From assembly GCA_014382685.1 (NCBI GenBank), contig JACNJG010000035.1, positions 1 through 15,883 on the forward strand: DNA of 15,883 bases. Direction: 5' to 3'. Each line of letters begins with the position of its first letter. Positions within the stretch are counted from its first letter, which is position 1. Shown here in pieces: positions 1-11,492 of the stretch. A program made the position numbers and the translations under genes. Below the pieces are notes generated by a model. It was given only the letters and a program-made list of their open reading frames with translations, did not search any database and was not told the origin of the DNA. The stretch comes from Candidatus Cloacimonadota bacterium (GTDB lineage Bacteria; Cloacimonadota; Cloacimonadia; JGIOTU-2).

Positions 1-117
1 TGCTCCGCCGTCATCATTAGGGTTGTCTGCCGCAGTGAAGGTTATGTCCTGGGCAAGAAGAGGAATGTTCAAGAAAAAAAACATAGTAAGAAAGAAACAA
101 AGGAAATATTTTTTCAT
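1..117 (-). CDS. Partial CDS (N-terminus only, continues beyond window start): secreted protein of unknown function with Sec-type signal peptide
   Basis: Not in the supplied ORF track because only 39 codons lie in the window. Minus-strand ATG at 117..115 is preceded by GGAG (126..123) with a 5-nt spacer. My translation, MKKYFLCFFLTMFFFLNIPLLAQDITFTAADNPNDDGGA, stays open to position 1. The KK n-region, hydrophobic core and LLA/Q site look like a signal peptide. Confidence 0.45.
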   Translation of the reverse strand, partial: MKKYFLCFFLTMFFFLNIPLLAQDITFTAADNPNDDGGA

Positions 118-153: not shown

Positions 154-1173
154 TTATGCATTTTTGAAATCATCTTCAATTTCAGAAATATTCACATCTC
201 GGAACGTATCTGCAATGTTAATGCCAATATAACTGAAACTCATCAAACCTATGATAGCGATTAATAATCCTGTCAATAGATGCGCAAAAGACATTACAGC
301 ACTAACCATTTCCTTGTTCAGTCCAAGTCCTACAGAGAATATCAGAACCATGATCAGTTCATTGCTTCCTATTTGTGCAGGTGGGGTGGGCAGAATATAG
401 GAAAGGTAGATCAATGTATAACCAAAAAGGATTATCGGAAATGGAATTACCTGCGCGAATGCACGAAACATGAAAAAAAAATATACGCTGTCAATTAACA
501 CGGCGATTATTGTGAGTCCGATAACTGAAGGAAGAATATTTGAGTGATGTTTGAAAAGACCAACGCCTTCGACGAAAATTTCAATGATTTCAAAGAATTT
601 TGTTTTAAATTTTTTCGGAATAAAGAATAAAAATTTAGTAAGAATTTTTACTACAAGCGGCTTATTCACGGTAGAAATAATAAGGATTCCGACTCCGATG
701 ATGAAAACAGCGACAAGTAAGAAAATTAGTATGAGGAGAGGTTCTGAGATATTAACATGCAGCAAAGGAATGAGAGCGAGAACAATGAAAATGGAGAAGG
801 AATCAAAAACTTTATCAATAAAAATGGATGGGAGACTTTTTGATATTGGAACACCCTTTGTCTTTTTTATAAAGTAACTTTTTGCGAATTCTCCGGCCCG
901 TATAGGGATAAGATAGTTAAGGAAAAATCCAGCCATCCATATGAAATAGACTTCTTTGATGGTAAGCCGACATACAGGTTTGAGTATTTGTTTCCAGCGT
1001 ATTGAGCGAATAAAATAGGAAAGCATATAGAGAACGGAAGCAATAAGGACATAGAGGATGTTTAGTTTTTTCAGATAAATCAGCACCTCGTTCATATCGA
1101 TGAACTGCATCCACACGATAATGAGAATGATACCTATTACAATACCAATTATTATCTTTTTTCTACCAGACAT
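154..1173 (-). CDS. UPF0104 / LPG_synthase_TM family flippase-like integral membrane protein
   Basis: 339-aa ORF with ATG start (1173..1171) and TAA stop. It is hydrophobic throughout with multiple predicted TM helices. Family-typical motifs are SYFIRSIRWKQIL near the N-terminus and YLIPIRAGEFAKSYF (P-x-R-x-GE). Same strand as the upstream methyltransferase-like gene, 27 nt downstream of it. Confidence 0.75.
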   Translation of the reverse strand: MSGRKKIIIGIVIGIILIIVWMQFIDMNEVLIYLKKLNILYVLIASVLYMLSYFIRSIRWKQILKPVCRLTIKEVYFIWMAGFFLNYLIPIRAGEFAKSYFIKKTKGVPISKSLPSIFIDKVFDSFSIFIVLALIPLLHVNISEPLLILIFLLVAVFIIGVGILIISTVNKPLVVKILTKFLFFIPKKFKTKFFEIIEIFVEGVGLFKHHSNILPSVIGLTIIAVLIDSVYFFFMFRAFAQVIPFPIILFGYTLIYLSYILPTPPAQIGSNELIMVLIFSVGLGLNKEMVSAVMSFAHLLTGLLIAIIGLMSFSYIGINIADTFRDVNISEIEDDFKNA

Positions 1174-1200: not shown

Positions 1201-2058
1201 TTAGTTCTCATACTCAACATTATTCACAAACAGCATAAATTTATGATGCGCCCAGAAAAATTTTATAAATTTCGGGGCAATTCGCTCGAACCAATAATGT
1301 TTCATCATATTAGCTGGGAAGGCGGTGTCTTTGCCGGAATAATAATCCAGAATACAAAGCTTATCTGCCTGTTCCTTTTGTTTCTTTTTCAAGAGGAAAC
1401 TGAGGTGCAGAGATGCAAGAAATTTCTCTTTATTCATACCAATATCGGGCCAGGGTGGAGCATCAATATAGTTTTTTTCAACAAGTTTCCAGTTTAGTTT
1501 GTTCATTATTTTTATGATATTTTTTGGAATGATATTCTTTTCTTTAAGATGTTTTTTGAGTTCCTGCAGAGATGAATATTTTTGCTGAAGATAGCCGAAG
1601 CCAGAGCGGTTTGGCACACAAATAAAAATAGCTTTTTTTGTCACCCGTGCAAGTTCGCCCAAAAACTTATCAAGATTATTTACAAACCAAAGAGAAGAGA
1701 AATTCCAGGTCAGGTCAAAGGTTTTATTTAGGAATCCGAGTTTTTCAAAGTTTTCCTGAAATAAAAAATCAGCATCAAGTCCGACCTTTTTCCATACATC
1801 ACGCACAAGTTCGATACGATCCCTGTCGTTATCAATAAGATATACATCGAGACCTTCTTTTGTCAGTCCCATCGAGTTGATTCCCGAGATGCCCGTGAAG
1901 CCGAAAGTGGGAACTTCGAGTACGGTCTCGCAGTCATATTTCTGTATGATTTCGTGCAATTTCCTGTTAAGTACAATACGTTCATAACTGGAACCAAGTC
2001 CTTCGTCAGGATTTTCTGTAAAGTATTCTTGCCAATTTTTTAAAATGGGAATTGCCAT
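1201..2058 (-). CDS. Class I SAM-dependent methyltransferase-like protein (atypical glycine-rich motif I)
   Basis: The ORF track gives 1201..2094. I prefer the internal ATG at 2058..2056 (MAIPILKNW...) because it forms a TAATG stop/start overlap with the upstream SDR gene. Rossmann-like pattern: VLEVPTFGFTGISG (degenerate motif I), acidic end of beta-2 (VYLIDND), FDLTWNFSSLW, LARVTKKAIFICVPN. The functional call is by pattern only. Confidence 0.55.
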   Translation of the reverse strand: MAIPILKNWQEYFTENPDEGLGSSYERIVLNRKLHEIIQKYDCETVLEVPTFGFTGISGINSMGLTKEGLDVYLIDNDRDRIELVRDVWKKVGLDADFLFQENFEKLGFLNKTFDLTWNFSSLWFVNNLDKFLGELARVTKKAIFICVPNRSGFGYLQQKYSSLQELKKHLKEKNIIPKNIIKIMNKLNWKLVEKNYIDAPPWPDIGMNKEKFLASLHLSFLLKKKQKEQADKLCILDYYSGKDTAFPANMMKHYWFERIAPKFIKFFWAHHKFMLFVNNVEYEN

Positions 2059-3050
2059 TAATTTTTCCCCTTTAACTTCGTTTGTTTGTACCAATTAATC
2101 ACATATTCAAATACCGGTACTGTGTTATGAGGAATGATATTCAAATCTTTTACTGCAGGTGTAACATCGTAATACCAGTTTTTTGAGATGAGTTCAATGC
2201 GTGCAGTCCATAATTCGTTTTTCAAAATTTTAGAGAAAATGAAAAGAGCAAAATTGTAAAGAAAAGTTGGAAGCTTTTTCCATTTCGGATATTCCGAACC
2301 GTGCAGTTCATTTTGAATAAAATTCACTAGTTCTTTAATGGAGATTGGGATTTTATCTGCAATATTGTAAGCACTACCGCTTTTTATGTTAGCTTTACCA
2401 GCTTGAATAAATGCCTGGATGAGTGTAGAAACATCCACAATGTTTATCATGATATCTTTTGTGGGAAGCATCATAATACCTTTATCGACAAGTTTAATAA
2501 GCGTGTAAGGGAACCCATAATCACCGATTCCGTAGGTTATTGAAGGTCGAATTATGGTAAGGTTCAGACCTTCTGGTACAAGCTCTTGTAATTTTTTTTC
2601 TGCTTCGATTTTTGTATAATGATAGTAGTTATCATTTTGACGCACAGTGTCTTCATTTGGTGGTAATTCTCTTGGAATCGCTCCGAATATTCCAACCGAA
2701 CTACAAAAGATCATCTTGCATTCATGTCGAATGCATTCATGAGCAATATGGAGGGTTGCATTTACGTTTGTTTCGTAGTAATCAGCCATCGGAAAATCTC
2801 TGCCACCTCTAATTGCAGCGATATGATAAACAAGATCAATTTTATGTTTCTTAAAAACTGAATGAATAAAATCAGCATTGGTAATGTCACCCTGAATACA
2901 TTTAACCCGATTATCTTGGAAGAATTGATATCGTTCTGACGAGGTGCCCTCCCTAATAAGCGCAGTGATCGTATGTTGATTTTCCTCTAACAATTTTCTG
3001 CAAAGTTCACCCCCGATAAAGCCAGTGATACCAGTGATCAAAATATACAA
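2058..3050 (-). CDS. NAD-dependent epimerase/dehydratase (extended SDR family)
   Basis: 330-aa ORF. N-terminal Rossmann motif ILITGITGFIGGEL, catalytic Y-x-x-x-K (YHYTKIEAEK), FCSSVGIFG. TTG start at 3050..3048 lies directly after an in-frame TAA, with AAGGA 8 nt upstream. TAA stop at 2060..2058 overlaps the next gene's ATG. Confidence 0.85.
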   Translation of the reverse strand: MYILITGITGFIGGELCRKLLEENQHTITALIREGTSSERYQFFQDNRVKCIQGDITNADFIHSVFKKHKIDLVYHIAAIRGGRDFPMADYYETNVNATLHIAHECIRHECKMIFCSSVGIFGAIPRELPPNEDTVRQNDNYYHYTKIEAEKKLQELVPEGLNLTIIRPSITYGIGDYGFPYTLIKLVDKGIMMLPTKDIMINIVDVSTLIQAFIQAGKANIKSGSAYNIADKIPISIKELVNFIQNELHGSEYPKWKKLPTFLYNFALFIFSKILKNELWTARIELISKNWYYDVTPAVKDLNIIPHNTVPVFEYVINWYKQTKLKGKN

Positions 3051-3221
3051 TTAAGTTATCCTTATCCTACTTATTATTTTTATAGTAGTATGCGATTGAA
3101 AAAAAAAATCATTGTCAATAAATTTGAAATGTAAATTTTGTATTTAAATTTGACAAAAATAATTTAAATTTGTTATTTAGGATTGTCATATAGACGATCT
3201 TACCAAATACGGAGGTGCGGT
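3051..3221. promoter_or_regulatory. Divergent intergenic control region between the SDR operon (-) and the surface-protein gene (+)
   Basis: This 171-nt gap is the largest non-coding stretch in the window. TAAATTTG occurs at 3119..3126, 3145..3152 and 3165..3172, with TAAATTTTG at 3132..3140. It matches the Bacteroidota-type -7 element TAnnTTTG. TTTG(3123..3126)-N18-TAAATTTG(3145..3152) fits a -33/-7 arrangement on the plus strand. TTGACA lies at 3150..3155 (+) and TGTCAA at 3113..3118 (TTGACA on the minus strand). An A10 tract lies at 3099..3108. No transcription start site can be proven from sequence. Confidence 0.35.
3211..3216 (+). promoter_or_regulatory. Shine-Dalgarno sequence (GGAGGT) for the surface-protein gene
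   Basis: GGAGGT lies 5 nt upstream of ATG 3222..3224, which begins MKKMMSLVCVIAFFLWGEQLVCA. Confidence 0.65.
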
Positions 3222-3527
3222 ATGAAAAAAATGATGAGTCTTGTGTGTGTTATAGCATTTTTTCTTTGGGGGGAACAATTAGTTTGTGCAAATACAGTTT
3301 ATGTGGACTGTAATGGTGGTGGAGATTATACTACAATTCAAGAAGGTATAGATGCTGCGTACGATGGTGACATTGTTTTAGTTGCCGATGGAACTTATAC
3401 TGGGGCTAATAACAAGAATCTATCTTGGGACGGTAACGATAAACATATTGTAATTAAATCAGAGAATGATTATGAGAGTTGTATCATTGATTGTGAAGGT
3501 AGTGGGAACGGTTTTTTCCTTAACTGA
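3222..3527 (+). CDS. N-terminal fragment of the surface protein: signal peptide plus first beta-helix turns, ending at the in-frame TGA
   Basis: MKKMMSLVCVIAFFLWGEQLVCA/NTVYVDCNGGGDYTTIQEGIDAAYDGDIVLVADGTYTG... is the canonical opening of pectate-lyase-fold (PbH1) proteins. The TGA stop at 3525..3527 was verified by hand. Confidence 0.6.
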   Translation: MKKMMSLVCVIAFFLWGEQLVCANTVYVDCNGGGDYTTIQEGIDAAYDGDIVLVADGTYTGANNKNLSWDGNDKHIVIKSENDYESCIIDCEGSGNGFFLN

Positions 3528-4430
3528 ACACATCAAACCCATGCGGATATTATTGAAGGATTTACCATACAAAACGCAAAAGGAACATGGGGGGGCGGCA
3601 TCAAAGCTTATAATGCCTCTCCAATAATTCAATATAACCGCATAACAAATTGTGAGTCTGGTTATAATCACATTAAAGGACCTGGAGGTGGAATTCTTTT
3701 GTATCATAATTGCAATGCTATTGTGCAAAACAATGTCATTGATAATAATATTGCTAGTGCAAATGATTTGGCGATGGGTGGAGGTATTTGTTGTTATCAT
3801 AATGACGATACAAATGCTCAACCGATCATAAGAAATAATATCATATTTAATAATGGTGCTCTTGAAGATGCAAGTGGTGGTGGAGGTGGTATTTGTATAT
3901 ATTTTTCCAGTCCGATAGTCGAAAATAATCTTATTTATGACAATTTTACAGACTGGTATGGCGGAGGAATTCATTGTTTACATGGTGGTAGTCCTGTTAT
4001 AAGAAACAATATTATCAATTGTAACAGCACTAGTCATTCATCACCTGCTGGTGGAGGTATTTCTGTTGTAGGAGGACATCCAACATTAATCAATAATACA
4101 ATTACTTCCAATAATGATTATGGTATTTACTATTCTTATGGTTCAATAACTACAGATTATTGTAATGTCTGGAATAATGGATTGGGGAATTATTATTCCT
4201 GTTCCCCTGGGATAGGCTGTATAAGTGAAGATCCCTTATTTGCAGATGTAAATAATGATGATTTTCATTTTTCAGAAACTTCCCCCTGTATCGATGCAGG
4301 AATTATTGATACTACCGGCATGAATTTACCACTCTATGATCTGGATGGTAATCCTCGTGTCGTTGATGGAAACGGAGATGGAATCGCAATTATTGATATG
4401 GGATGTTATGAATATTATAATTATCAACAG
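3291..4430 (+). other. Right-handed parallel beta-helix (PbH1/pectate-lyase-fold) repeat region
   Basis: Periodic turns of the form NN-I/V-I-x-x-N ... GGGI (IRNNIIFNN, VENNLIYDN, IRNNIINCN, LINNTITSN; GGGICCY, GGGICIY, GGGIHCL, GGGISVV). It closes with the typical cap EDPLFADVNNDDFHFSETSPCIDAG ... DLDGNPRVVDGNGDGIAIIDMGCYEY. Confidence 0.8.
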
Positions 4431-5729
4431 CAAATATATCTTGAGATACCCACAGAATACGCATTGCCCGGTGATACTGTTCTCATACCTATTAATGTTC
4501 TATTTCCTCAAGATTCAACTTTCACCTCTGCAGAAATTATTGTTGGCGGATATTTGGGTTCGTTAGAATTTCTTGAGTTGATCGCTGATTCCAGTTTGGT
4601 GGGTGATGCGGGATGGATGTATGAGTACAATGAAACCGATAGTCTGAATACGATATGGATGGCTGGTTCAGAACCAATATCCGGTGAAGATGTTCTTATA
4701 TGGATGAAGTTAAGTGTACCTAACACGGCAACCGGTTTTGTTCCAATAACGCTTGAGGATGCCCTGTTTGACACTGGTTTGGTGCCTGTAGAGCTTACAT
4801 CAGGAGGAATAAACATAGTGGCTCTCATATATGGCGATGTTGATTTTAACGGATTGGTTCAGGCGTATGATGCCTCAATGATATTGCAATATTTGGTAGG
4901 TTACATTAACTTAGATGATCTGCAATTGTCGGTCGCTGATGTTAGTCTTGATTCTACTGTCTCAGCTTTTGATGCAACTTTGATCCTACAGTATGGAGTT
5001 GGGATTATAGACACTTTGCCCTATCAGCCGGGACCATCCTATATTGCTAATGGTGATATAACAATGGAGGATCAAGTATATACCGGAGATCCCATTGATG
5101 TGCCAATAATAATCACAAATGCAGAAAATATTTTTTCTTTCGAAGGTTTGATCAATTTTGACACTGAGTGTTTAATGTTAGCTGACGTTTATTGGTCTGA
5201 TTATTTGGATGGTTTTTGTATATGTACAGATGTTGATGGAGGTGAATTTAAACTCGTAGGATCCGGAACTTTGCCATATGAGGAGTACGGTGTGATGGCA
5301 ACAATTAGATTTTATCCTAAAGATGGATTTAATATTAATGATTCAACAACTGTATGTTTCGAAAATCTAAGATTGAATGAAAATGAGACTATGTATAATA
5401 TTGCAACATCGATTATATTGAATAATTATGGAGTCAACAATCCTCAAGAACAGGAATTTATACTTCACCAAAATAGCCCCAATCCATTTGTGCATAACAC
5501 AAAAATCCAATACTCAATACCTTTGGAAAGTACTGTCTCGCTGAAAATATATAATATAAGAGGTGAACTTATTGTCGATCTGGTTAATGAATTCAAAGAC
5601 AAGGGTTCATATGATATTGTCTGGGATGGTAGAGATAAAAATGGTAATAGAGTTGTTAATGGGATATATTTCTATAAATTTATTAGTGGCGACTCAGAGA
5701 TAATAAAGAGGATGATACTTCTTAGATAG
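3699..5729 (+). CDS. C-terminal ORF of the same surface protein as a gene caller would report it (beta-helix repeats, cohesin-dockerin-cohesin, T9SS sorting domain)
   Basis: 676-aa ORF with TAG stop at 5727..5729. Its apparent start at 3699 is a TTG that reads as an internal Leu of the read-through protein. The first in-frame ATG is at 3774. The fragment has no signal peptide of its own, so it is unlikely to function as an independent T9SS cargo. Confidence 0.6.
   Translation: MYHNCNAIVQNNVIDNNIASANDLAMGGGICCYHNDDTNAQPIIRNNIIFNNGALEDASGGGGGICIYFSSPIVENNLIYDNFTDWYGGGIHCLHGGSPVIRNNIINCNSTSHSSPAGGGISVVGGHPTLINNTITSNNDYGIYYSYGSITTDYCNVWNNGLGNYYSCSPGIGCISEDPLFADVNNDDFHFSETSPCIDAGIIDTTGMNLPLYDLDGNPRVVDGNGDGIAIIDMGCYEYYNYQQQIYLEIPTEYALPGDTVLIPINVLFPQDSTFTSAEIIVGGYLGSLEFLELIADSSLVGDAGWMYEYNETDSLNTIWMAGSEPISGEDVLIWMKLSVPNTATGFVPITLEDALFDTGLVPVELTSGGINIVALIYGDVDFNGLVQAYDASMILQYLVGYINLDDLQLSVADVSLDSTVSAFDATLILQYGVGIIDTLPYQPGPSYIANGDITMEDQVYTGDPIDVPIIITNAENIFSFEGLINFDTECLMLADVYWSDYLDGFCICTDVDGGEFKLVGSGTLPYEEYGVMATIRFYPKDGFNINDSTTVCFENLRLNENETMYNIATSIILNNYGVNNPQEQEFILHQNSPNPFVHNTKIQYSIPLESTVSLKIYNIRGELIVDLVNEFKDKGSYDIVWDGRDKNGNRVVNGIYFYKFISGDSEIIKRMILLR
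4434..4820 (+). other. Cohesin-like domain 1
   Basis: IYLEIPTEYALPGDTVLIPINVLFPQDSTFTSAEIIVGGYLGSLEFLELIADSSL...GEDVLIWMKLSVPNTATGFVPITLEDALFD...GGINIV follows the cohesin beta-sandwich pattern (pGdtV-vPv ... g-la-i-fkV ... G-i-v). Pattern recognition only. Confidence 0.55.
4830..5006 (+). other. Dockerin-like domain (two EF-hand-type Ca-binding repeats)
   Basis: Repeat 1 is DVDFNGLVQAYDASMILQY and repeat 2 is DVSLDSTVSAFDATLILQY. Each has Asp/Asn/Ser at loop positions 1, 3 and 5, Asp at position 12, and a following amphipathic helix. Confidence 0.65.
5052..5423 (+). other. Cohesin-like domain 2
   Basis: GDITMEDQVYTGDPIDVPIIITNAENIFSFEGLINFDTECLMLADV...GVMATIRFYPKDGFNINDSTTVCFENLRLNE has the same cohesin-type pattern as domain 1, but the two are divergent at both DNA and protein level. 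Confidence 0.5.
5454..5726 (+). other. T9SS type A C-terminal sorting domain (Por_Secre_tail / FlgD-Ig-like)
   Basis: EFILHQNSPNPFVHNTKIQYSIPLESTVSLKIYNIRGELIVDLVNEFKDKGSYDIVWDGRDKNGNRVVNGIYFYKFISGD matches the hallmark L-x-QN-x-PNPF ... I-Y-L ... V-L-IYN-x-G ... WDG-D-x-G-x-V-x-G-YFY pattern at the extreme C-terminus. Confidence 0.85.
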
Positions 5730-5747: not shown

Positions 5748-5804
5748 CCCGGATTACAATTTGAAAATGGACTTTAGTTTGTTTTTCAGTGATCCGGGTT
5801 TTTT
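5748..5804 (+). terminator. Candidate intrinsic terminator for the plus-strand surface-protein transcript, embedded in the 3' end of the convergent gene
   Basis: The outer stem CCCGGAT (5748..5754) / ATCCGGG (5792..5798) is followed directly by T6 (5799..5804). The inner stem is TGAAAA (5762..5767) / TTTTCA (5783..5788). It starts 19 nt after the TAG stop. The large interior loop makes it atypical. It has no U-tract in the minus orientation. Confidence 0.3.
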
Positions 5805-6548
5805 CCTTTCATCGAAATACCCATCAAAATTATGAATGAGGGGTTCGTTATTAAGAATCCTTTTAGGGTTTTCATAAAAAAGGATTTGTGCAATTTCTTC
5901 AGAATGATTTGAGGCGACAAAATCATAGGCATCTTTCATAAGTATCGGTCGCTTTTTTAAACCATGTACATCCGAAGCAATAACATGGACACATCCGATA
6001 TTGAGCATCTCCAATGCCAAGTTCTTCACTACATTACCATACACACCCAGAATACTTCCACTATTCATTTGAATATATATTTCCCTATTTACTATCGTGA
6101 GCAGGTAGTCGATATTGTTCATAAAAGGTGAAAATCTCTCTGCATGTGCTAGAATTGGTCGAAATCCTTCTTGTTGAAAGTTAAAAAGGATCTCTTCAAA
6201 ATTATCTGGAAAACGTTGCAGTTCAGTTTCAATAAGTATATAATTGCTGTTTGCAAGTGTAAGGTTTTCATCTTTTACTTTGCTGATCACATCCGGTTCG
6301 CAATAGAGTTCTGCACCGGGATGGATTTTAATACTAAGTTCCCGCTCTTGTATAAGATCTTGTACTTCAATAAGCTTTCTGTCAATTATACTGCGAGTGT
6401 TTTCATACACACCGGAAATGATATGCGGCGTAGCGACAAGTTCAGTTACTCCCTGATTGACAAGTGCTTGTAATATTTCAAAGCTCTCAGACATATCCTG
6501 TGCTCCGTCATCGATTCCCGGAAGTACGTGAGTATGAATATCTATCAT
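5754..6548 (-). CDS. PHP-domain metal-dependent phosphoesterase, CpsB/YwqE (CapC) tyrosine-phosphatase family
   Basis: 264-aa ORF with ATG start and TAA stop. All four family motifs are present: MIDIHTHVLPGIDDGA (H-x-H-x-LPG-x-DDG), VATPH, LAHAERF, IASDVHG. It starts 5 nt after the GGGPS stop, so it is probably co-transcribed. Confidence 0.85.
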   Translation of the reverse strand: MIDIHTHVLPGIDDGAQDMSESFEILQALVNQGVTELVATPHIISGVYENTRSIIDRKLIEVQDLIQERELSIKIHPGAELYCEPDVISKVKDENLTLANSNYILIETELQRFPDNFEEILFNFQQEGFRPILAHAERFSPFMNNIDYLLTIVNREIYIQMNSGSILGVYGNVVKNLALEMLNIGCVHVIASDVHGLKKRPILMKDAYDFVASNHSEEIAQILFYENPKRILNNEPLIHNFDGYFDERKKPGSLKNKLKSIFKL

Positions 6549-6553
6549 ATCAG

Positions 6554-7300
6554 CTATAAATGAATTGCGTCTGCAAATTCTTTTATTAGATCGGTCTGAT
6601 TGTTCTTTTCAATGGCAGTGCCAATCACTATAAAATCTGCGCCTGCAGATACTTTTTCTCGGGCTTCCTCAGGAGTTCTTATACCACCGCCGATTATCAT
6701 TGGAATGGAAATATTTTCTTTAACTTTCATGATCATTTCTGTTGGGACTGACTGTTTTGCTCCGCTTCCAGCATCAAAGAAGATAATCTTCATGCCAAGA
6801 TATTGAGCTGCAAGTGCATGTGAAGCTGCGATGTCGTATTTGGTTCTTGGTATTGGCAAGCTGTTGCTCATAAACTGTACTGAAGTTAGTGAACCGGATT
6901 CTATCAGAAAGTAACCTGTGGGAATTGCCTCGACCGCGTATTTTTTTATGAGAGGTGCTGTCCGAACCTGCTCTCCGATAAGCAATTGTGGATTTCTGCT
7001 GCTCATCATACTGAGGAAAAGGATCGCATCAGCATAGGGAGAGACAAAGTTGAAGATTCCGGGAAACACAAGTACAGGAACGGATACCTTTTCTTTGATG
7101 ACCCTTACAGTTTCATCAAAATTATCTTTGATCATCAAGCTGCCGCCAACCAAAATCACGTCAACACCATTGATCTGGCATTTTTCAGCAAGCTTTGCAG
7201 ATTCTACTGGCTCTTGCTTATCAGGATCAATAAGACAGAAGAAGCCGGCTTTTTTTTCACTCTTAAGTGAATATAAAAATTGTAACATGTTGTCTTTCAT
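6554..7300 (-). CDS. Geranylgeranylglyceryl phosphate synthase (GGGPS/PcrB family, TIM barrel)
   Basis: The ORF track gives 6554..7312. I prefer ATG 7300..7298 (MKDNMLQF...), which forms an ATGA overlap with the upstream TGA stop. Motifs: FFCLIDPDK, VILVGGS, PVLVFPG, FLSMMSSRNPQLLIGEQ, GYFLIESGS, FFDAGSGA, IIGGGIRTPEEAREKVSAGADFIVIGTAIE (standard phosphate-binding end of the barrel). TAG stop. Confidence 0.85.
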   Translation of the reverse strand: MKDNMLQFLYSLKSEKKAGFFCLIDPDKQEPVESAKLAEKCQINGVDVILVGGSLMIKDNFDETVRVIKEKVSVPVLVFPGIFNFVSPYADAILFLSMMSSRNPQLLIGEQVRTAPLIKKYAVEAIPTGYFLIESGSLTSVQFMSNSLPIPRTKYDIAASHALAAQYLGMKIIFFDAGSGAKQSVPTEMIMKVKENISIPMIIGGGIRTPEEAREKVSAGADFIVIGTAIEKNNQTDLIKEFADAIHL

Positions 7301-8133
7301 TGTGCCACCCATAAAATAACTAAAAATATTAGCATGTGTACTTTCATGAAACTTTCCGAATATTTTGCTGTTTTTGCGATTGGTTTAACTACAAGAACTA
7401 TCAGATCAATTAGAAGCAAAAATACGATTACAATCAATAATAATATGAAGAATGTTGAAGAATAAAATTCCGGATATCCCCAAATAATTGTTGCTGCGAA
7501 TCCTATCCAGAAAAGCAGTGAGAGCAGAAGTGTTTTTTTGTCACCCCACAAAAGCGGAAGAGTTTTTGCACCCGCAGAACTGTCGCCATTTTTATCTTCG
7601 ATATCCTTAACGAGCTCTCTTATCAGAGTATAGAAAAATGCACAGAGTGCTGCAAAGAATGCGTTTCTGAGATTGTGTGTAATAAAGCTTCCAAACACAA
7701 AGGTGGAGGCGGTCACGAAGGCGACAAGCAGATTTCCCCAGAAATGTATTCTTTTACTTTTCATGGCATAAACATATAGCAGGAATGAATTGAAAGCAGC
7801 GATCGCGATCATCCACAGATTTCGTAAAAAGATACTAATAATTATTCCAGTAATAAAAAGGCAGATCGCATAATATTTTGCCCTTGTGGGAGAAATCATA
7901 CCTGAGGGTAAAATTCTTTCTTTCCGATTGATCATATCGATTGAATAATCGTAGTAATCATTGATCACATAACCTCCTCCTGAGATAAGTGCTGCTGCAA
8001 TGCCTGCAAGAAGGGGATAAAAAATCGGATATGCTGTCACTTTGTAGTAGGCGCCGAAAAGGACTGCGATCAAAACAAACAGAAAATTCAGCGGTCTGAG
8101 GATACGAATATATGCCCAAATGCTTTGTATCAC
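7297..8133 (-). CDS. UbiA-family prenyltransferase, digeranylgeranylglyceryl phosphate (DGGGP) synthase-like
   Basis: 278-aa polytopic membrane ORF. First Asp-rich motif NDYYDYSIDMINRKERILPSG (aa 58-77) and second DIEDKNGDSSAGAKTLP (aa 177-193), as in UbiA prenyltransferases. Size and operon context match DGGGPS. GTG start (8133..8131) shares one base with the upstream TAG. TGA stop at 7299..7297. Confidence 0.75.
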   Translation of the reverse strand: MIQSIWAYIRILRPLNFLFVLIAVLFGAYYKVTAYPIFYPLLAGIAAALISGGGYVINDYYDYSIDMINRKERILPSGMISPTRAKYYAICLFITGIIISIFLRNLWMIAIAAFNSFLLYVYAMKSKRIHFWGNLLVAFVTASTFVFGSFITHNLRNAFFAALCAFFYTLIRELVKDIEDKNGDSSAGAKTLPLLWGDKKTLLLSLLFWIGFAATIIWGYPEFYSSTFFILLLIVIVFLLLIDLIVLVVKPIAKTAKYSESFMKVHMLIFLVILWVAQ

Positions 8134-9020
8134 TAGGGAATTCTATCATGAATGCGTTCTACAATTTCCAGGAGAACTTGATTATTGGGAATATATTTTA
8201 TGATATTCTGTGCATCTTGGATGAGTTTTAGAGCTTGTCGCTTTGATTCTTCAATACCAAGAAGCGTAGGATAGGTGACTTTTTCATTGCGCTGATCTTC
8301 ACCTGATTCCTTTTCCAGCAGATCGTCTGCTCCAACTTCATCGAGAATATCATCGATAACCTGATACGCAAGTCCGATATTCAGTGCGAAGTCACTTAAC
8401 GCATTGGTGATCTGCTCTGTGGCATTTGCTAAAATACAAGCGCAACGCTCTGCTGCACGTAGAAGGGCACCTGTTTTTTTGAGGTGAATATCTCTCAAGA
8501 TATGCAGTTTGACTCTTCTCTGCGAAGAAGTAATATCAACCACCTGTCCGCCGATCATGCCTCTTGTGGATACAGCTTCGACGAGTTCTTCAAGGCATTG
8601 GATCGCTTTTTTGCTGTTGCGAAGCTTGAGAACTGTCTCGAATCCCTTTGTCATGAGCGCATCGCCGGTGAGTACAGCAATTGCATTCCCGAATTTTTTA
8701 TGACAGCTTGGCTTTCCACGTCGTTCATCAGCGTTATCAATAAAAGGCAGATCATCATGGACAAGCGAAGCAGTATGAAGCATTTCAATCGCACAGGCGA
8801 CTGGAAGAGCCTGCTGTATAGTCCTTTTATCACGCCTGTTCATAAGCATCTCATAGGTCGCAAGCATCAATGTAGGACGTAAACGTTTTCCTCCAGCCAA
8901 CACAGAATATCTCATCGCACGATGAATTATCTCCGGTTTTGTGTTATCAGAATCGAGATATTTCGCAAGAGATTTATTGATAAGCTCTCTTCTGTTTTCA
9001 AAATATTTATCTATAATCAA
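8133..9020 (-). CDS. Short-chain trans-polyprenyl diphosphate synthase, predicted geranylgeranyl diphosphate (GGPP) synthase
   Basis: 295-aa ORF. FARM is HDDLPFIDNADERRGKPSCH (DDxxxxD with the 2-residue insertion of type-II short-chain enzymes). SARM is YQVIDDILD. Ala84/Ser85 sit at positions -5/-4 before the FARM, where bacterial FPP synthases carry Tyr/Phe. TTG start at 9020..9018 lies behind a perfect AGGAGG. TAG stop. Confidence 0.8.
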   Translation of the reverse strand: MIIDKYFENRRELINKSLAKYLDSDNTKPEIIHRAMRYSVLAGGKRLRPTLMLATYEMLMNRRDKRTIQQALPVACAIEMLHTASLVHDDLPFIDNADERRGKPSCHKKFGNAIAVLTGDALMTKGFETVLKLRNSKKAIQCLEELVEAVSTRGMIGGQVVDITSSQRRVKLHILRDIHLKKTGALLRAAERCACILANATEQITNALSDFALNIGLAYQVIDDILDEVGADDLLEKESGEDQRNEKVTYPTLLGIEESKRQALKLIQDAQNIIKYIPNNQVLLEIVERIHDRIP

Positions 9021-9024
9021 CTAT

Positions 9025-9030
9025 CCTCCT
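9025..9030 (-). promoter_or_regulatory. Shine-Dalgarno sequence (AGGAGG) for the polyprenyl synthase gene
   Basis: On the minus strand AGGAGG-ATAG-TTG, a 4-nt spacer to the TTG start at 9020. There is no in-frame ATG near the N-terminus. Confidence 0.6.
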
Positions 9031-9110
9031 AAGATTAGGAACTTATTGAAATGTGTATAAGTTGTAATTTCTTGTCAAATTTTCCAGCATCAATTGGCAT
9101 TTGACTTCCT

Positions 9111-11492
9111 TTATAAAAGAGAAATGGGGTCGATATCAATCTGCATTTTTATATAGTTTGGAATTGTCACATTACTTTGTAACCATTCAAAAAAGCGGTT
9201 AATATCTTGTTGATGTTCAGCTTTTATCAATATATGATAACGATACTGTTTTCTGATTTTGCTTATAGGTGCAGGTGTCGGGCTGAGAATAATAAATTTA
9301 TCTTTTTGGGGATATCTGGCGATCTTTCTCTTCACTACATCCATATATGAGCGAAGCCGCTCTTCATTATTTAGCATAAACAGTATGCGGGCAAGTTTGG
9401 TAGATGGAGGATAGTGAAGCTCCTGCCTGAGGTGAAGTTCGTATTCGTAGAAACCCATAAAGTTCTGTTTCCGGGCATATTGAATGCTGTAGTGTTTGGG
9501 ATTAAAGGTTTGAACGATCACCTCGCCTTCTTTTTCACTGCGCCCTGCTCGCCCTGCCACTTGAATGATATGCTGAAAATTTCGCTCCGATGCTCTGAAA
9601 TCAGGAAGGTTGAGATTTACATCTGCAGAAACGATGCCAACTAAAGTTATGTTCGGAAAATCAAGTCCTTTGATGATCATTTGTGTGCCGAGCAGAATAT
9701 CGATGTAGCCATTATGAACCTGATCAAATATATTTTGAAAGCTGTTCTTTTTCTTTGTAGTATCTGTATCCATTCGAGCAATTCTTGCAGTCGGGAAAAG
9801 GAACTGCAGGTTCTGTTCGATCTTCTCAGTACCTGGTGAGCCAAAATTAAAGATATATCCTCCGCATTCAGGGCAAGTGCGCGGCATGGAGCGTTCATAT
9901 CCGCAGTAATGACATTTGATCTTGTTATTTCTGGAATGATAGGTCATGCTGATGTTACAATCCTTGCATTGCAGCACATGACCGCATTTTACGCACTGCA
10001 CATAAGAAGCATATCCTCTGCGATTTTGAAAGAGAAGTATCTGCTCCTTTTTATTGAGCCGATCTTCGATCTTGTCTTTAAGAATCTTAGAAAAAATCTC
10101 TGTGTGATCTTCCTCCTGCCGCATATCGACTATTGTTAGATTAGGAAGTATCTGATTCTTCACCCTTTTACTCATGGTAAGAAGAGAATATTTTTTATTT
10201 TGAGTATTGTAATATGACTCAAGATAAGGAGTTGCGGTTCCCAGAAGAACGACAGCATTATTCATTTTTCCCCTAAGAACTGCCATATCACGCGCATTAT
10301 AAAGAGGTGGTCGCTCATGCTGTTTGTATGTGTTTTCGTGCTCTTCATCAACAATAATAAGCCCAATATTCTCAAGCGGAGCAAAGAGCGCACTTCTTGG
10401 ACCGATAGCTATCTTTCTTTCACCTTTTTTCAGAAGGTTCCAGTAATGCAAGCGTTCCCTGTCACTGAGCTTGCTGTGCAGTACTGCAATGATGTCCCCA
10501 AAGTGGGAATAGAATCTCTCAACGGTCTGCGGAGTTAAGGAGATTTCCGGAATGAGAAGTATCGCTGTTTTCCCATAAGAAAGTGCTTTTTTCATCGCAC
10601 GAATATAGACTTCGGTTTTTCCGCTCGAAGTTACTCCATAGAGAAGAAAGGTGTGAAAATTCTGTTCATCTATCTGGGCTTCTAATTTTTCCAAAACTTC
10701 AGTTTGCTCTTCTGTAAGCTCGAAAGTAACAGGTTTGCGCTGCACAATATTTGAAAAAATATCCGGATGAATTTCTTTCTTATATATCTCAATTAGATTT
10801 GTCTTTTTTAATTTATTAATGATGCTGTAAGAAAATTTTTTTGAAATGTCTGCCATGAAGATCGGTTCGGGGTGGTTTTGTAGATAATTCCAAAGTTCCT
10901 GCTGCTTGGGACTGAGAGACTCATCAGATGAGTCTGAAATAAGCTTAATGCAGTTCACAACTTTTTTCTGAATTTTTCTCTTATATTGACGCTCGATCTC
11001 GATCAGTCCCAGCTCCTCCATTTCGAGGAGATTTTTATACAGAGGAGAAATTTTTGATTTTTTCAAATCTTCTATGGTGCAGGCATCACCATTTTTCTCT
11101 ATATATTTGATAATTTTCAGGAAGTTTATGTTTTCAGATTTAGGATTCCTCAGTATAATTTTTTGAATTGTATTTACATTTATACCTGCAGGCAGCATTG
11201 CCTTGAAGACAAGTCCGATAGGGCAGTGGTAATACTTTGAAATCCACTGTGCAAAGGTGAAAAGCTCTTTATTGATGAGAGGTTTCTCGTCGATAATTTC
11301 GTGGATTTCCTTTATCTTGGCTTCATCATAAGCAGGTTTCTCTAACAGTCCAATAATGATCCCTGTCTGAATTCGGTAATTGAAATCCACAATCACGCGC
11401 TGCCCGATTTGAGGTGAAACGTTCTTCGGATAGGAATAAGTAAAGGTTTCCTGAATATTAATAGGTAGAGCAACTTCGATATAATTTTTCAT
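9111..11492 (-). CDS. priA: Primosomal protein N' (replication restart DNA helicase PriA)
   Basis: 793-aa ORF with ATG start and TAA stop. Walker A LLYGVTSSGKTEVY, DExH box IIVDEEHE, GTATPYLES, QVAGRAGR, and the PriA-specific Cys-rich zinc module CVKCGHVLQCKDCNISMTYHSRNNKIKCHYCGY...CPECGG. Confidence 0.95.
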   Translation of the reverse strand: MKNYIEVALPINIQETFTYSYPKNVSPQIGQRVIVDFNYRIQTGIIIGLLEKPAYDEAKIKEIHEIIDEKPLINKELFTFAQWISKYYHCPIGLVFKAMLPAGINVNTIQKIILRNPKSENINFLKIIKYIEKNGDACTIEDLKKSKISPLYKNLLEMEELGLIEIERQYKRKIQKKVVNCIKLISDSSDESLSPKQQELWNYLQNHPEPIFMADISKKFSYSIINKLKKTNLIEIYKKEIHPDIFSNIVQRKPVTFELTEEQTEVLEKLEAQIDEQNFHTFLLYGVTSSGKTEVYIRAMKKALSYGKTAILLIPEISLTPQTVERFYSHFGDIIAVLHSKLSDRERLHYWNLLKKGERKIAIGPRSALFAPLENIGLIIVDEEHENTYKQHERPPLYNARDMAVLRGKMNNAVVLLGTATPYLESYYNTQNKKYSLLTMSKRVKNQILPNLTIVDMRQEEDHTEIFSKILKDKIEDRLNKKEQILLFQNRRGYASYVQCVKCGHVLQCKDCNISMTYHSRNNKIKCHYCGYERSMPRTCPECGGYIFNFGSPGTEKIEQNLQFLFPTARIARMDTDTTKKKNSFQNIFDQVHNGYIDILLGTQMIIKGLDFPNITLVGIVSADVNLNLPDFRASERNFQHIIQVAGRAGRSEKEGEVIVQTFNPKHYSIQYARKQNFMGFYEYELHLRQELHYPPSTKLARILFMLNNEERLRSYMDVVKRKIARYPQKDKFIILSPTPAPISKIRKQYRYHILIKAEHQQDINRFFEWLQSNVTIPNYIKMQIDIDPISLL

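Follow-up and report, generated by a model that had tools for sequence, protein, structure and literature searches.

The 15,883-nt contig JACNJG010000035.1 of a Candidatus Cloacimonadota bacterium (assembly GCA_014382685.1; this whole stretch is called the window below) carries a minus-strand gene cluster, downstream of priA, that very probably constitutes the Cloacimonadota pathway to the archaeal diether core, organised as one operon. Three of its genes code for a short-chain isoprenyl diphosphate synthase (IDS), a putative digeranylgeranylglyceryl phosphate (DGGGP) synthase of the UbiA superfamily (DGGGPS) and a geranylgeranylglyceryl phosphate (GGGP) synthase (GGGPS). As an operon this is a rediscovery of a published and functionally tested system, already known since 2021. 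What is new here is that a further gene, coding for a metal-dependent phosphoesterase of the PHP type, always accompanies the GGGPS cluster in Cloacimonadota. The elements on which the argument turns are the following.

9021..9110, minus strand: intergenic region of 90 nt between priA and the IDS gene, the likely site of the promoter and ribosome-binding site of the operon
8133..9020, minus strand: short-chain trans-isoprenyl diphosphate synthase (IDS), predicted type II geranylgeranyl diphosphate (GGPP) synthase; TTG start, 295 aa
7297..8133, minus strand: UbiA-superfamily prenyltransferase, DGGGP synthase type; GTG start, 278 aa
6554..7300, minus strand: group II GGGPS, a TIM barrel; ATG start, 248 aa
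6554..7312, minus strand: the same gene read from an alternative ATG start at 7312; open reading frame (ORF) of 252 aa, in which the ATG at 7300 is internal
5754..6548, minus strand: PHP metal-dependent phosphoesterase of the CpsB/YwqE family (PF19567), the conserved fourth gene of the cluster

The first-pass annotation had recognised three minus-strand genes chained by overlapping stop and start codons, and the overlaps are present exactly as described. At the IDS/UbiA junction (minus strand CCC TAG TG ATA), nucleotide G8133 is common to the TAG stop at 8135..8133 and the GTG start at 8133..8131, and at the UbiA/GGGPS junction (minus strand GCA CA ATG A AAG) the TGA stop at 7299..7297 is overlapped by the ATG start at 7300..7298. 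Translational coupling of the three genes may be inferred from these overlaps, and an AGGAGG lies 4 nt ahead of the IDS TTG start. The cassette had been delimited as 6554..9020, which is correct for these three genes but leaves out the fourth; the PHP gene starts 5 nt past the GGGPS stop, on the same strand. The spacer 9021..9110 contains no sigma-70-like site, the nearest one on the minus strand being inside priA (9230..9201), and the promoter and terminator scan of the window returned 43 sites against a shuffled expectation of 37.1, which is no excess. We infer the operon promoter from the 90-nt gap alone because the scan does not rise above that expectation. Rfam and tRNA scans of the window produced no matches. 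The cluster flanks are bacterial, with PriA, UPF0102/YraN, GWxTD and DnaE proteins.

The gene content had also been called not unprecedented, which is right but understates the case: the layout, the transcription and the activities have already been reported (PMC7852524). Villanueva et al. (2021, ISME J) found GGGPS colocalised with DGGGPS in the Ca. Cloacimonetes metagenome-assembled genomes (MAGs) NIOZ-UU1 to UU4. In NIOZ-UU3, PriA, a polyprenyl synthase, DGGGPS and GGGPS are coded on one PCR-verified scaffold, and Black Sea transcripts of all three genes were detected by reverse-transcription PCR. Purified Ca. Cloacimonetes GGGPS formed GGGP from GGPP in vitro, both with sn-glycerol-1-phosphate (G1P) and with sn-glycerol-3-phosphate (G3P), and E. 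coli carrying Ca. Cloacimonetes GGGPS and DGGGPS produced phosphatidylglycerol-archaeol (PG-archaeol) with eight unsaturations. The MAGs are without EgsA/AraM and the CDP-archaeol synthase CarS; a geranylgeranyl reductase (GGR) and bacterial CdsA, PgsA and Pgp are encoded elsewhere in them, as is a full fatty-acid/G3P pathway (all PMC7852524). Later surveys repeat the same Cloacimonadota gene content. The NIOZ-UU locus shares with the window its phylum, its gene order and its missing G1P dehydrogenase (G1PDH) and CarS, but it stems from a different MAG. The published activities are those of same-phylum enzymes and not of the window proteins. The presence of archaeal ether-lipid and fatty-acid pathways in one bacterium bears on the 'lipid divide' and on the viability of mixed membranes; this significance was set by the 2021 study, and the window is another instance from the same phylum.

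Adjacency of the three genes, as expected from the first reading of the locus, is conserved among relatives. Proteins named Candidatus Cloacimonetes or Cloacimonadota are the closest to the window GGGPS (58-90% identity), its 90%-identity cluster includes proteins of Ca. Celaenobacter and Cloacimonas sp. 4484_140, and the best-matching genome loci are all from Cloacimonadota. Our comparison covers 15 further Cloacimonadota loci, namely a near-identical contig (L001), 11 species representatives and L084-L086. The order IDS-UbiA-GGGPS is found in 14 of these 15, L001 included, and in 10 of the 11 species representatives; the exception is L003, and L006 is truncated within UbiA. The same order, with PriA upstream, is seen in relatives at 88%, 77% and 67% identity, and L084 and L085 (77-88% identity) repeat the junctions themselves, with a 1-nt IDS/UbiA and a 4-nt UbiA/GGGPS overlap. 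In more distant Cloacimonadota the junctions consist of short gaps or overlaps.

All of the IDS, UbiA and GGGPS motifs quoted in the first-pass annotation are in their places, and Pfam profiles agree with the three assignments: PF00348 for IDS (2e-59), PF01040 for the UbiA protein (1.9e-38) and PF01884 for GGGPS (3.1e-45). The GGGPS passes two NCBIfam models, TIGR01769 (223.6 bits, cut-off 161.55) and the group II model NF003198 (298.4 bits, cut-off 247), and scores low on the heptaprenyl HepGPS model (35 bits) and on the Afulg-type group I model (44.6 bits). Its matches to solved structures follow the same pattern: 194 bits (1.7e-56) to MtGGGPS of M. thermautotrophicus (4mm1) and 178 bits (2.1e-51) to FjGGGPS of Flavobacterium johnsoniae (4jej), both group II, against 31-38 bits (1e-6 to 1e-8) to PcrB structures and 25 bits to AfGGGPS of A. 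fulgidus, a group I enzyme. These scores place the window GGGPS in group II and not with the Bacillus-type PcrB. The latter belongs to the same TIM-barrel family and likewise represents an archaeal-type ether bond in a bacterium, but it is a group Ib, C35 enzyme.

Within the GGGPS, the motifs LIDPDK, VFPG, SSRNP and GGGIRTPEEA stand at residues 23, 78, 100 and 204. The standard TIM-barrel phosphate-binding loops that follow beta6, beta7 and beta8, namely A-G178-S179-G180, G204-G205-G206 and I-G227-T228 align with G176-S-G, GGG and TGT of MtGGGPS, and G178, S179, G180, G204-G206 and G227 are invariant in our GGGPS alignment (A1). F143 aligns with the hexamer anchor W141 of MtGGGPS, and Y130 of the proposed Tyr/Tyr/Glu triad is present. 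At the position of the chain-length ruler, in helix alpha3', the protein has V86, which aligns with the proposed group II C20 limiters V86 (Mt) and I90 (Fj). By homology, the window GGGPS is predicted to form GGGP from GGPP and glycerol phosphate.

For the UbiA protein, the best NCBIfam models are the DGGGPS models PRK12884 (191 bits) and PRK12882 (184 bits), against 74 bits for ChlG, 47 for UbiA and 41 for CyoE. Among solved structures its best match is DGGGPS of M. jannaschii (MjDGGGPS, 6m31, E 3.8e-30, residues 4-273), followed by a chlorophyll synthase (6e-10). Motif 1, NDYYDYSID at residue 58, reads N58-x3-D62-x3-D66, and motif 3, DIEDKNGD at residue 177, reads D177-x2-D180-x3-D184; they match N62/D66/D70 and D180/D183/D187 of MjDGGGPS (PMC9385802). 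The assignment to the DGGGP synthase type, as opposed to a quinone, heme or chlorophyll prenyltransferase, is thus supported, in agreement with the earlier annotation.

The IDS has its first aspartate-rich motif (FARM), DDLPFID with a two-residue insertion, at residue 89, and its second (SARM), DDILD, at residue 223. The FARM follows T-A-S-L-V-H, which puts Ala at -5 and Ser at -4, and this chain-length region is kept in 9/9 Cloacimonadota cluster orthologues recovered next to DGGGPS. Small residues at -4/-5 ahead of a FARM with a two-residue insertion are the pattern of type II GGPP synthases (PMC9385802). From the Ala/Ser pair and the insertion a C20 GGPP product is predicted, as it had been from the single sequence.

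In the pathway as we propose it, IDS would convert dimethylallyl and isopentenyl diphosphates (DMAPP/IPP) to C20 GGPP and would probably also supply farnesyl diphosphate (FPP) as an intermediate. The soluble group II GGGPS would then etherify GGPP to glycerol phosphate, giving GGGP, and the membrane-bound DGGGPS would attach another geranylgeranyl chain to yield DGGGP (unsaturated archaetidic acid). Activation and attachment of the head group would fall to the host's bacterial CdsA, PgsA and Pgp, and saturation to a GGR encoded elsewhere. The GGGPS and DGGGPS steps are assigned by homology; for same-phylum enzymes they have been demonstrated by experiment. Relative to the archaeal diether pathway, the window retains a homologous group II GGGPS with its V86 limiter and a DGGGPS with intact motifs; it differs in that the predicted GGPP synthase belongs to the bacterial/plant type II, not to the archaeal type I, that EgsA and CarS are absent, and that its GGGPS has F-x-D for Y-x-E.

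Five points weigh against this reading. First, the UbiA protein falls under the curated cut-offs of the DGGGPS models (191 against 269 bits for PRK12884, 184 against 296 bits for PRK12882); both models were built on archaeal sequences. Second, the chain length of the IDS product is a prediction, and the protein passes the NCBIfam FPPsyn subfamily model (299.7 bits, cut-off 275) and is under the cut-off of the CrtE-type GGPP synthase model (278.8 bits, cut-off 460). It might then be a housekeeping FPP synthase (IspA) that is only partly related to the ether-lipid genes, with GGPP coming from another enzyme. Solved GGPP and FPP synthases are evenly mixed among its relatives and match it equally well, which means that overall similarity does not decide between the two, and, since the 2021 MAGs carry just two polyprenyl synthases, one of the short-chain/GGPP type and one of the medium-chain type (PMC7852524), the short-chain enzyme must also feed undecaprenyl diphosphate synthesis. 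In bacterial FPP synthases, however, position -5 ahead of the FARM is aromatic, whereas IDS and its nine orthologues show the Ala/Ser pattern of type II GGPP synthases, and the IDS gene is coupled to that of DGGGPS by overlap and conserved together with it. The two roles are, moreover, compatible with each other, since FPP either is released by a GGPP synthase or forms on the way to its product. We therefore consider a purely housekeeping IDS improbable.

Third, there is no source of G1P among the window genes: profile scans of the window ORFs with Pfam and NCBIfam found no match to G1PDH, CarS or GGR, whose absence had already been remarked on. For Fibrobacteres-Chlorobi-Bacteroidetes (FCB) lineages that are without G1PDH, Coleman et al. 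raised the possibility of salvage (PMC6431249), and a G1P dehydrogenase is missing from the published MAGs as well as from the window. In that case the GGGPS and DGGGPS homologues would not build lipids but would use other substrates or run backwards, as in the salvage or degradation of archaeal lipids that the cell takes up from its environment. This we regard as highly improbable. A GGPP-type synthase coupled by overlap upstream of them argues for biosynthetic substrate supply, the same-phylum enzymes are synthetically active both in vitro and in E. coli, and E. coli can do without AraM in making G1P-based archaeal lipid (PMC7852524). Fourth, no such lipid is known to have been demonstrated in Cloacimonadota cells, and cultivation failed in the 2021 study (PMC7852524).

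The fifth point concerns the active site of the GGGPS itself, which has F174-x-D176 at the place of Y-x-E in MtGGGPS (Y172/E174) and in FjGGGPS. The latter, of group IIb (Peterhoff et al. 2014), is a bacterial group II enzyme like that of the window, but keeps Y-x-E. A review calls the Tyr/Tyr/Glu residues strictly conserved and determinants of stereospecificity and catalysis (PMC9385802). Phe or Cys, followed by Asp, occurs in every relative of at least 63% identity; these make up 56 of the 136 sequences in which the motif is recognisable. Across 130 representatives of the family (50% clustering), 89 have Y-E, 34 Y-D, 3 F-E, 2 F-D and 2 other combinations; Asp is common (37/130) and Phe rare (5/130). 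As Asp is a common variant, the triad is not truly invariant, which tempers the functional claim and does not exclude membership of group II. At the same time, the occurrence of F174/D176 throughout a subclade means that activity and backbone preference are not simply to be copied from other enzymes. The substitution could relax or switch the backbone stereoselectivity of the GGGPS. No mention of the F-x-D variant is made in the main text or the supplement text of the 2021 study (PMC7852524).

While the three-gene pathway has a published precedent, what can be said of the fourth gene? The PHP protein matches PF19567 (CpsB_CapC) over its full length (5.5e-59) and aligns full-length with YwqE (3qy6, E 1.9e-37) and CpsB (2wjd, 1.3e-35); on the Cps4B equivalog model it scores 152 bits and does not reach the cut-off of 400. 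The metal ligands HxH, E, H, D and H are invariant in our PHP alignment (A2), as H5, H7, E80, H134, D192 and H194 when numbered along the sequence that heads the alignment. The window PHP thus shares both its full length and the expected metal-binding positions with the manganese-dependent protein-tyrosine phosphatases of the YwqE/CpsB family. It differs from them in its setting, since it adjoins GGGPS and not BY-kinase or capsule genes: neither in the window nor in those Cloacimonadota loci that have annotated neighbours is any of these adjacent to PHP.

In each of the 15 further Cloacimonadota loci (L001-L010, L017, L024, L084-L086) the PHP gene is the next one downstream of GGGPS. It also follows GGGPS in about ten other FCB loci (L014, L022, L036, L044, L046, L050, L069, L087-L089), whose hosts include Cytophagia (L014, L036, L044), Latescibacteria (L022, partial), Gemmatimonadetes (L046) and KSB1 (L050). 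In the L014-L069 set of these loci alaS is upstream, and the downstream genes vary (BatA/HflX, a SpoU methylase, a carbamoyltransferase or HPr/PtsI). The GGGPS and PHP genes overlap by 4 nt in the Cloacimonadota locus L002 and in the non-Cloacimonadota locus L087. The association was also examined in reverse, by a scan of metagenome contigs for which the query was a PHP alignment headed by a Cytophagia sequence. Of the 80 loci recovered, those with the three closest PHPs (43-48% identity) have GGGPS immediately upstream, and the other 77 do not. In a neighbour-joining tree (drawn without support values), the GGGPS-linked PHPs form a Cloacimonadota clade and a second FCB clade, with L046 as an outlier, and the sole unlinked PHP inside the linked clades, L110, is on a contig that ends upstream of it.

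PHP is co-inherited with GGGPS and probably acts in, or regulates, the ether-lipid pathway. The gene is not mentioned in the main text or the supplement text of the 2021 study, and the word 'phosphatase' is absent from its main text (PMC7852524). As PHP is present at only 7 of the 69 non-Cloacimonadota GGGPS loci, and as its family is one of protein-tyrosine phosphatases, a role in the pathway is a lead and not a result. A C-terminal amphipathic tail, considered as a hint that PHP might associate with membranes or lipids, was dropped, basic or aromatic tails being common in unlinked homologues too; the C-terminal hydrophobic moment has a median of 0.52 in linked and 0.43 in unlinked PHPs (p = 0.0008).

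One specific form of this lead would change the end product of the cluster. If PHP stripped the phosphate from GGGP or DGGGP, the product would be a dephosphorylated, non-bilayer prenylglycerol, (di)geranylgeranylglycerol, in place of a membrane phospholipid; the cell could use it as a neutral lipid or build a glycolipid or acyl-lipid on it. The linkage of PHP to GGGPS in every Cloacimonadota locus, and elsewhere in FCB among differing neighbours, is in keeping with this, as are the 4-nt overlaps, which fit coupling, the intact metal ligands, and the clades of linked PHPs, from which, L110 apart, the 76 other unlinked metagenomic CpsB-family PHPs are separate. CarS is absent from the MAGs (PMC7852524), and a review describes phosphate removal for glycolipid synthesis without assigning an enzyme to it. 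There is precedent in Bacillus, where heptaprenylglyceryl phosphate loses its phosphate and is acetylated (PMC9179154); this later dephosphorylation is a possible parallel to the linked PHP of the window. On the other hand, PHP is by sequence an ordinary member of the YwqE/CpsB protein-tyrosine phosphatases, it is missing from most non-Cloacimonadota GGGPS loci, and its basic or amphipathic tail is not specific to linked PHPs. To our knowledge, no lipid phosphatase is known in this family. Furthermore, Cloacimonetes GGGPS and DGGGPS alone gave the phospholipid PG-archaeol in E. coli (PMC7852524). On balance we find a dephosphorylated product doubtful.

A broader proposal, in which PHP would be a fourth pathway step, either as a GGGP/DGGGP phosphatase or as a supplier of G1P, and in which F-x-D would alter the stereoselectivity of the GGGPS, strikes us as possible but unlikely. 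If it were true, Cloacimonadota would make isoprenoid diethers that differ from those of archaea in their backbone or in their fate. The GGGPS-linked PHP across FCB and the lineage-wide F-x-D provide concrete handles on the source and chirality of the glycerol phosphate, on the fate of DGGGP where CarS is lacking and on the existence of the lipids in cells.

Beyond the diether-core cluster proper, the surroundings of GGGPS vary considerably. Among the Cloacimonadota, one locus (L003; JAMOQM010000056.1, 1..6720) keeps GGGPS, PHP and the genes for a short-chain dehydrogenase/reductase (SDR), a methyltransferase (MT) and a flippase-like protein described below; in place of IDS and UbiA, the genes upstream code for a response regulator and an S41 peptidase. 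In six species-representative loci, a Gfo/Idh/MocA oxidoreductase gene lies 14-45 nt upstream of IDS (in L002 at 3202..4236); its best models, inositol 2-dehydrogenase and UDP-GlcNAc 3-dehydrogenase, both score under cut-off. This oxidoreductase was set aside as a candidate source of G1P, as it is absent from the window and its close relatives, where PriA is found instead. The alternation of PriA and Gfo/Idh/MocA upstream indicates that the cassette is conserved while its surroundings change.

In other FCB phyla (L011, L014, L015, L025 and others) GGGPS stands in a block of the form recA-recX-alaS-GGGPS-(PHP)-gmhA-like. Of the 69 non-Cloacimonadota GGGPS loci, 40 have alaS upstream and 36 have a phosphoheptose-isomerase-like SIS gene downstream. 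Unlike in the window, most of the non-Cloacimonadota FCB loci examined have this alaS-GGGPS-gmhA-like context without an adjacent DGGGPS or IDS. The gmhA-like SIS gene was not retained as a pathway member: its best models are phosphoheptose isomerases and we treat it as housekeeping synteny. A different arrangement occurs in two Poribacteria MAGs and one unclassified bacterium, in which a DGGGPS-like UbiA, a GGR and GGGPS lie within about 3 kb.

L039, 3764..6717: Poribacteria-type locus with UbiA, GGR and GGGPS
L051, 2696..6735: Poribacteria-type locus with UbiA, GGR and GGGPS
L078, 3562..6729: Poribacteria-type locus with UbiA, GGR and GGGPS

The UbiA proteins of these loci score 124-224 bits to PRK12882, and their GGR-family proteins are above the TIGR02032 cut-off. 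Contrary to the statement made in 2021, colocalised ether-lipid genes are thus found in bacteria outside Cloacimonadota as well.

The remaining genes of interest in the window lie beyond PHP.

3222..5729, plus strand: beta-helix/dockerin/cohesin/FlgD-Ig protein, between the PHP and SDR genes and in opposite orientation to them
2058..3050, minus strand: extended SDR (HpnA-like)
1201..2094, minus strand: class I methyltransferase (MT)
154..1173, minus strand: flippase-like protein (LPG_synthase_TM)

On the same strand after PHP, the 11 species representatives have an SDR gene in 11 cases, a flippase-like gene in 10 and a methyltransferase gene in 9-10, and in L002 the trio (7505..10532) continues the chain after PHP with 4-nt overlaps. 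In the window the trio is split from PHP by the plus-strand gene. The methyltransferase is missing from the relatives at 88% and 77% identity, which possess a paralogous SDR (25-28% identity) together with a 141-aa protein and, on the opposite strand, a flippase-like gene; the relative at 67% has none of the SDR, methyltransferase and flippase-like genes. On these grounds we rejected the trio as obligate steps of the pathway, and also because SDR-MT pairs occur in glycosyltransferase clusters that are free of GGGPS (L082 and L083, from a 10-Mb genome and a Calditrichia MAG). The trio is probably a module for glycan or glycolipid modification.

The plus-strand gene at 3222..5729 had been labelled a type IX secretion system (T9SS) cargo, a label that fared less well than the bacterial character of the other flanking genes, the match to the T9SS C-terminal sorting domain being weak and sub-threshold. 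Its frame of about 835 codons is broken by one in-frame TGA at 3525..3527 (...GFFLN*THQTHADIIEG...). TGA is a normal stop elsewhere in the window, for example at the end of UbiA, and the in-frame codon could be a nonsense mutation, the mark of a pseudogene or a sequencing error. At the other side of the trio, on the minus strand at 1..115, a further gene starts with a signal-peptide-like N-terminus (MKKYFLCFFLTMFFFLNIPLLAQ...) and is cut by the window edge.

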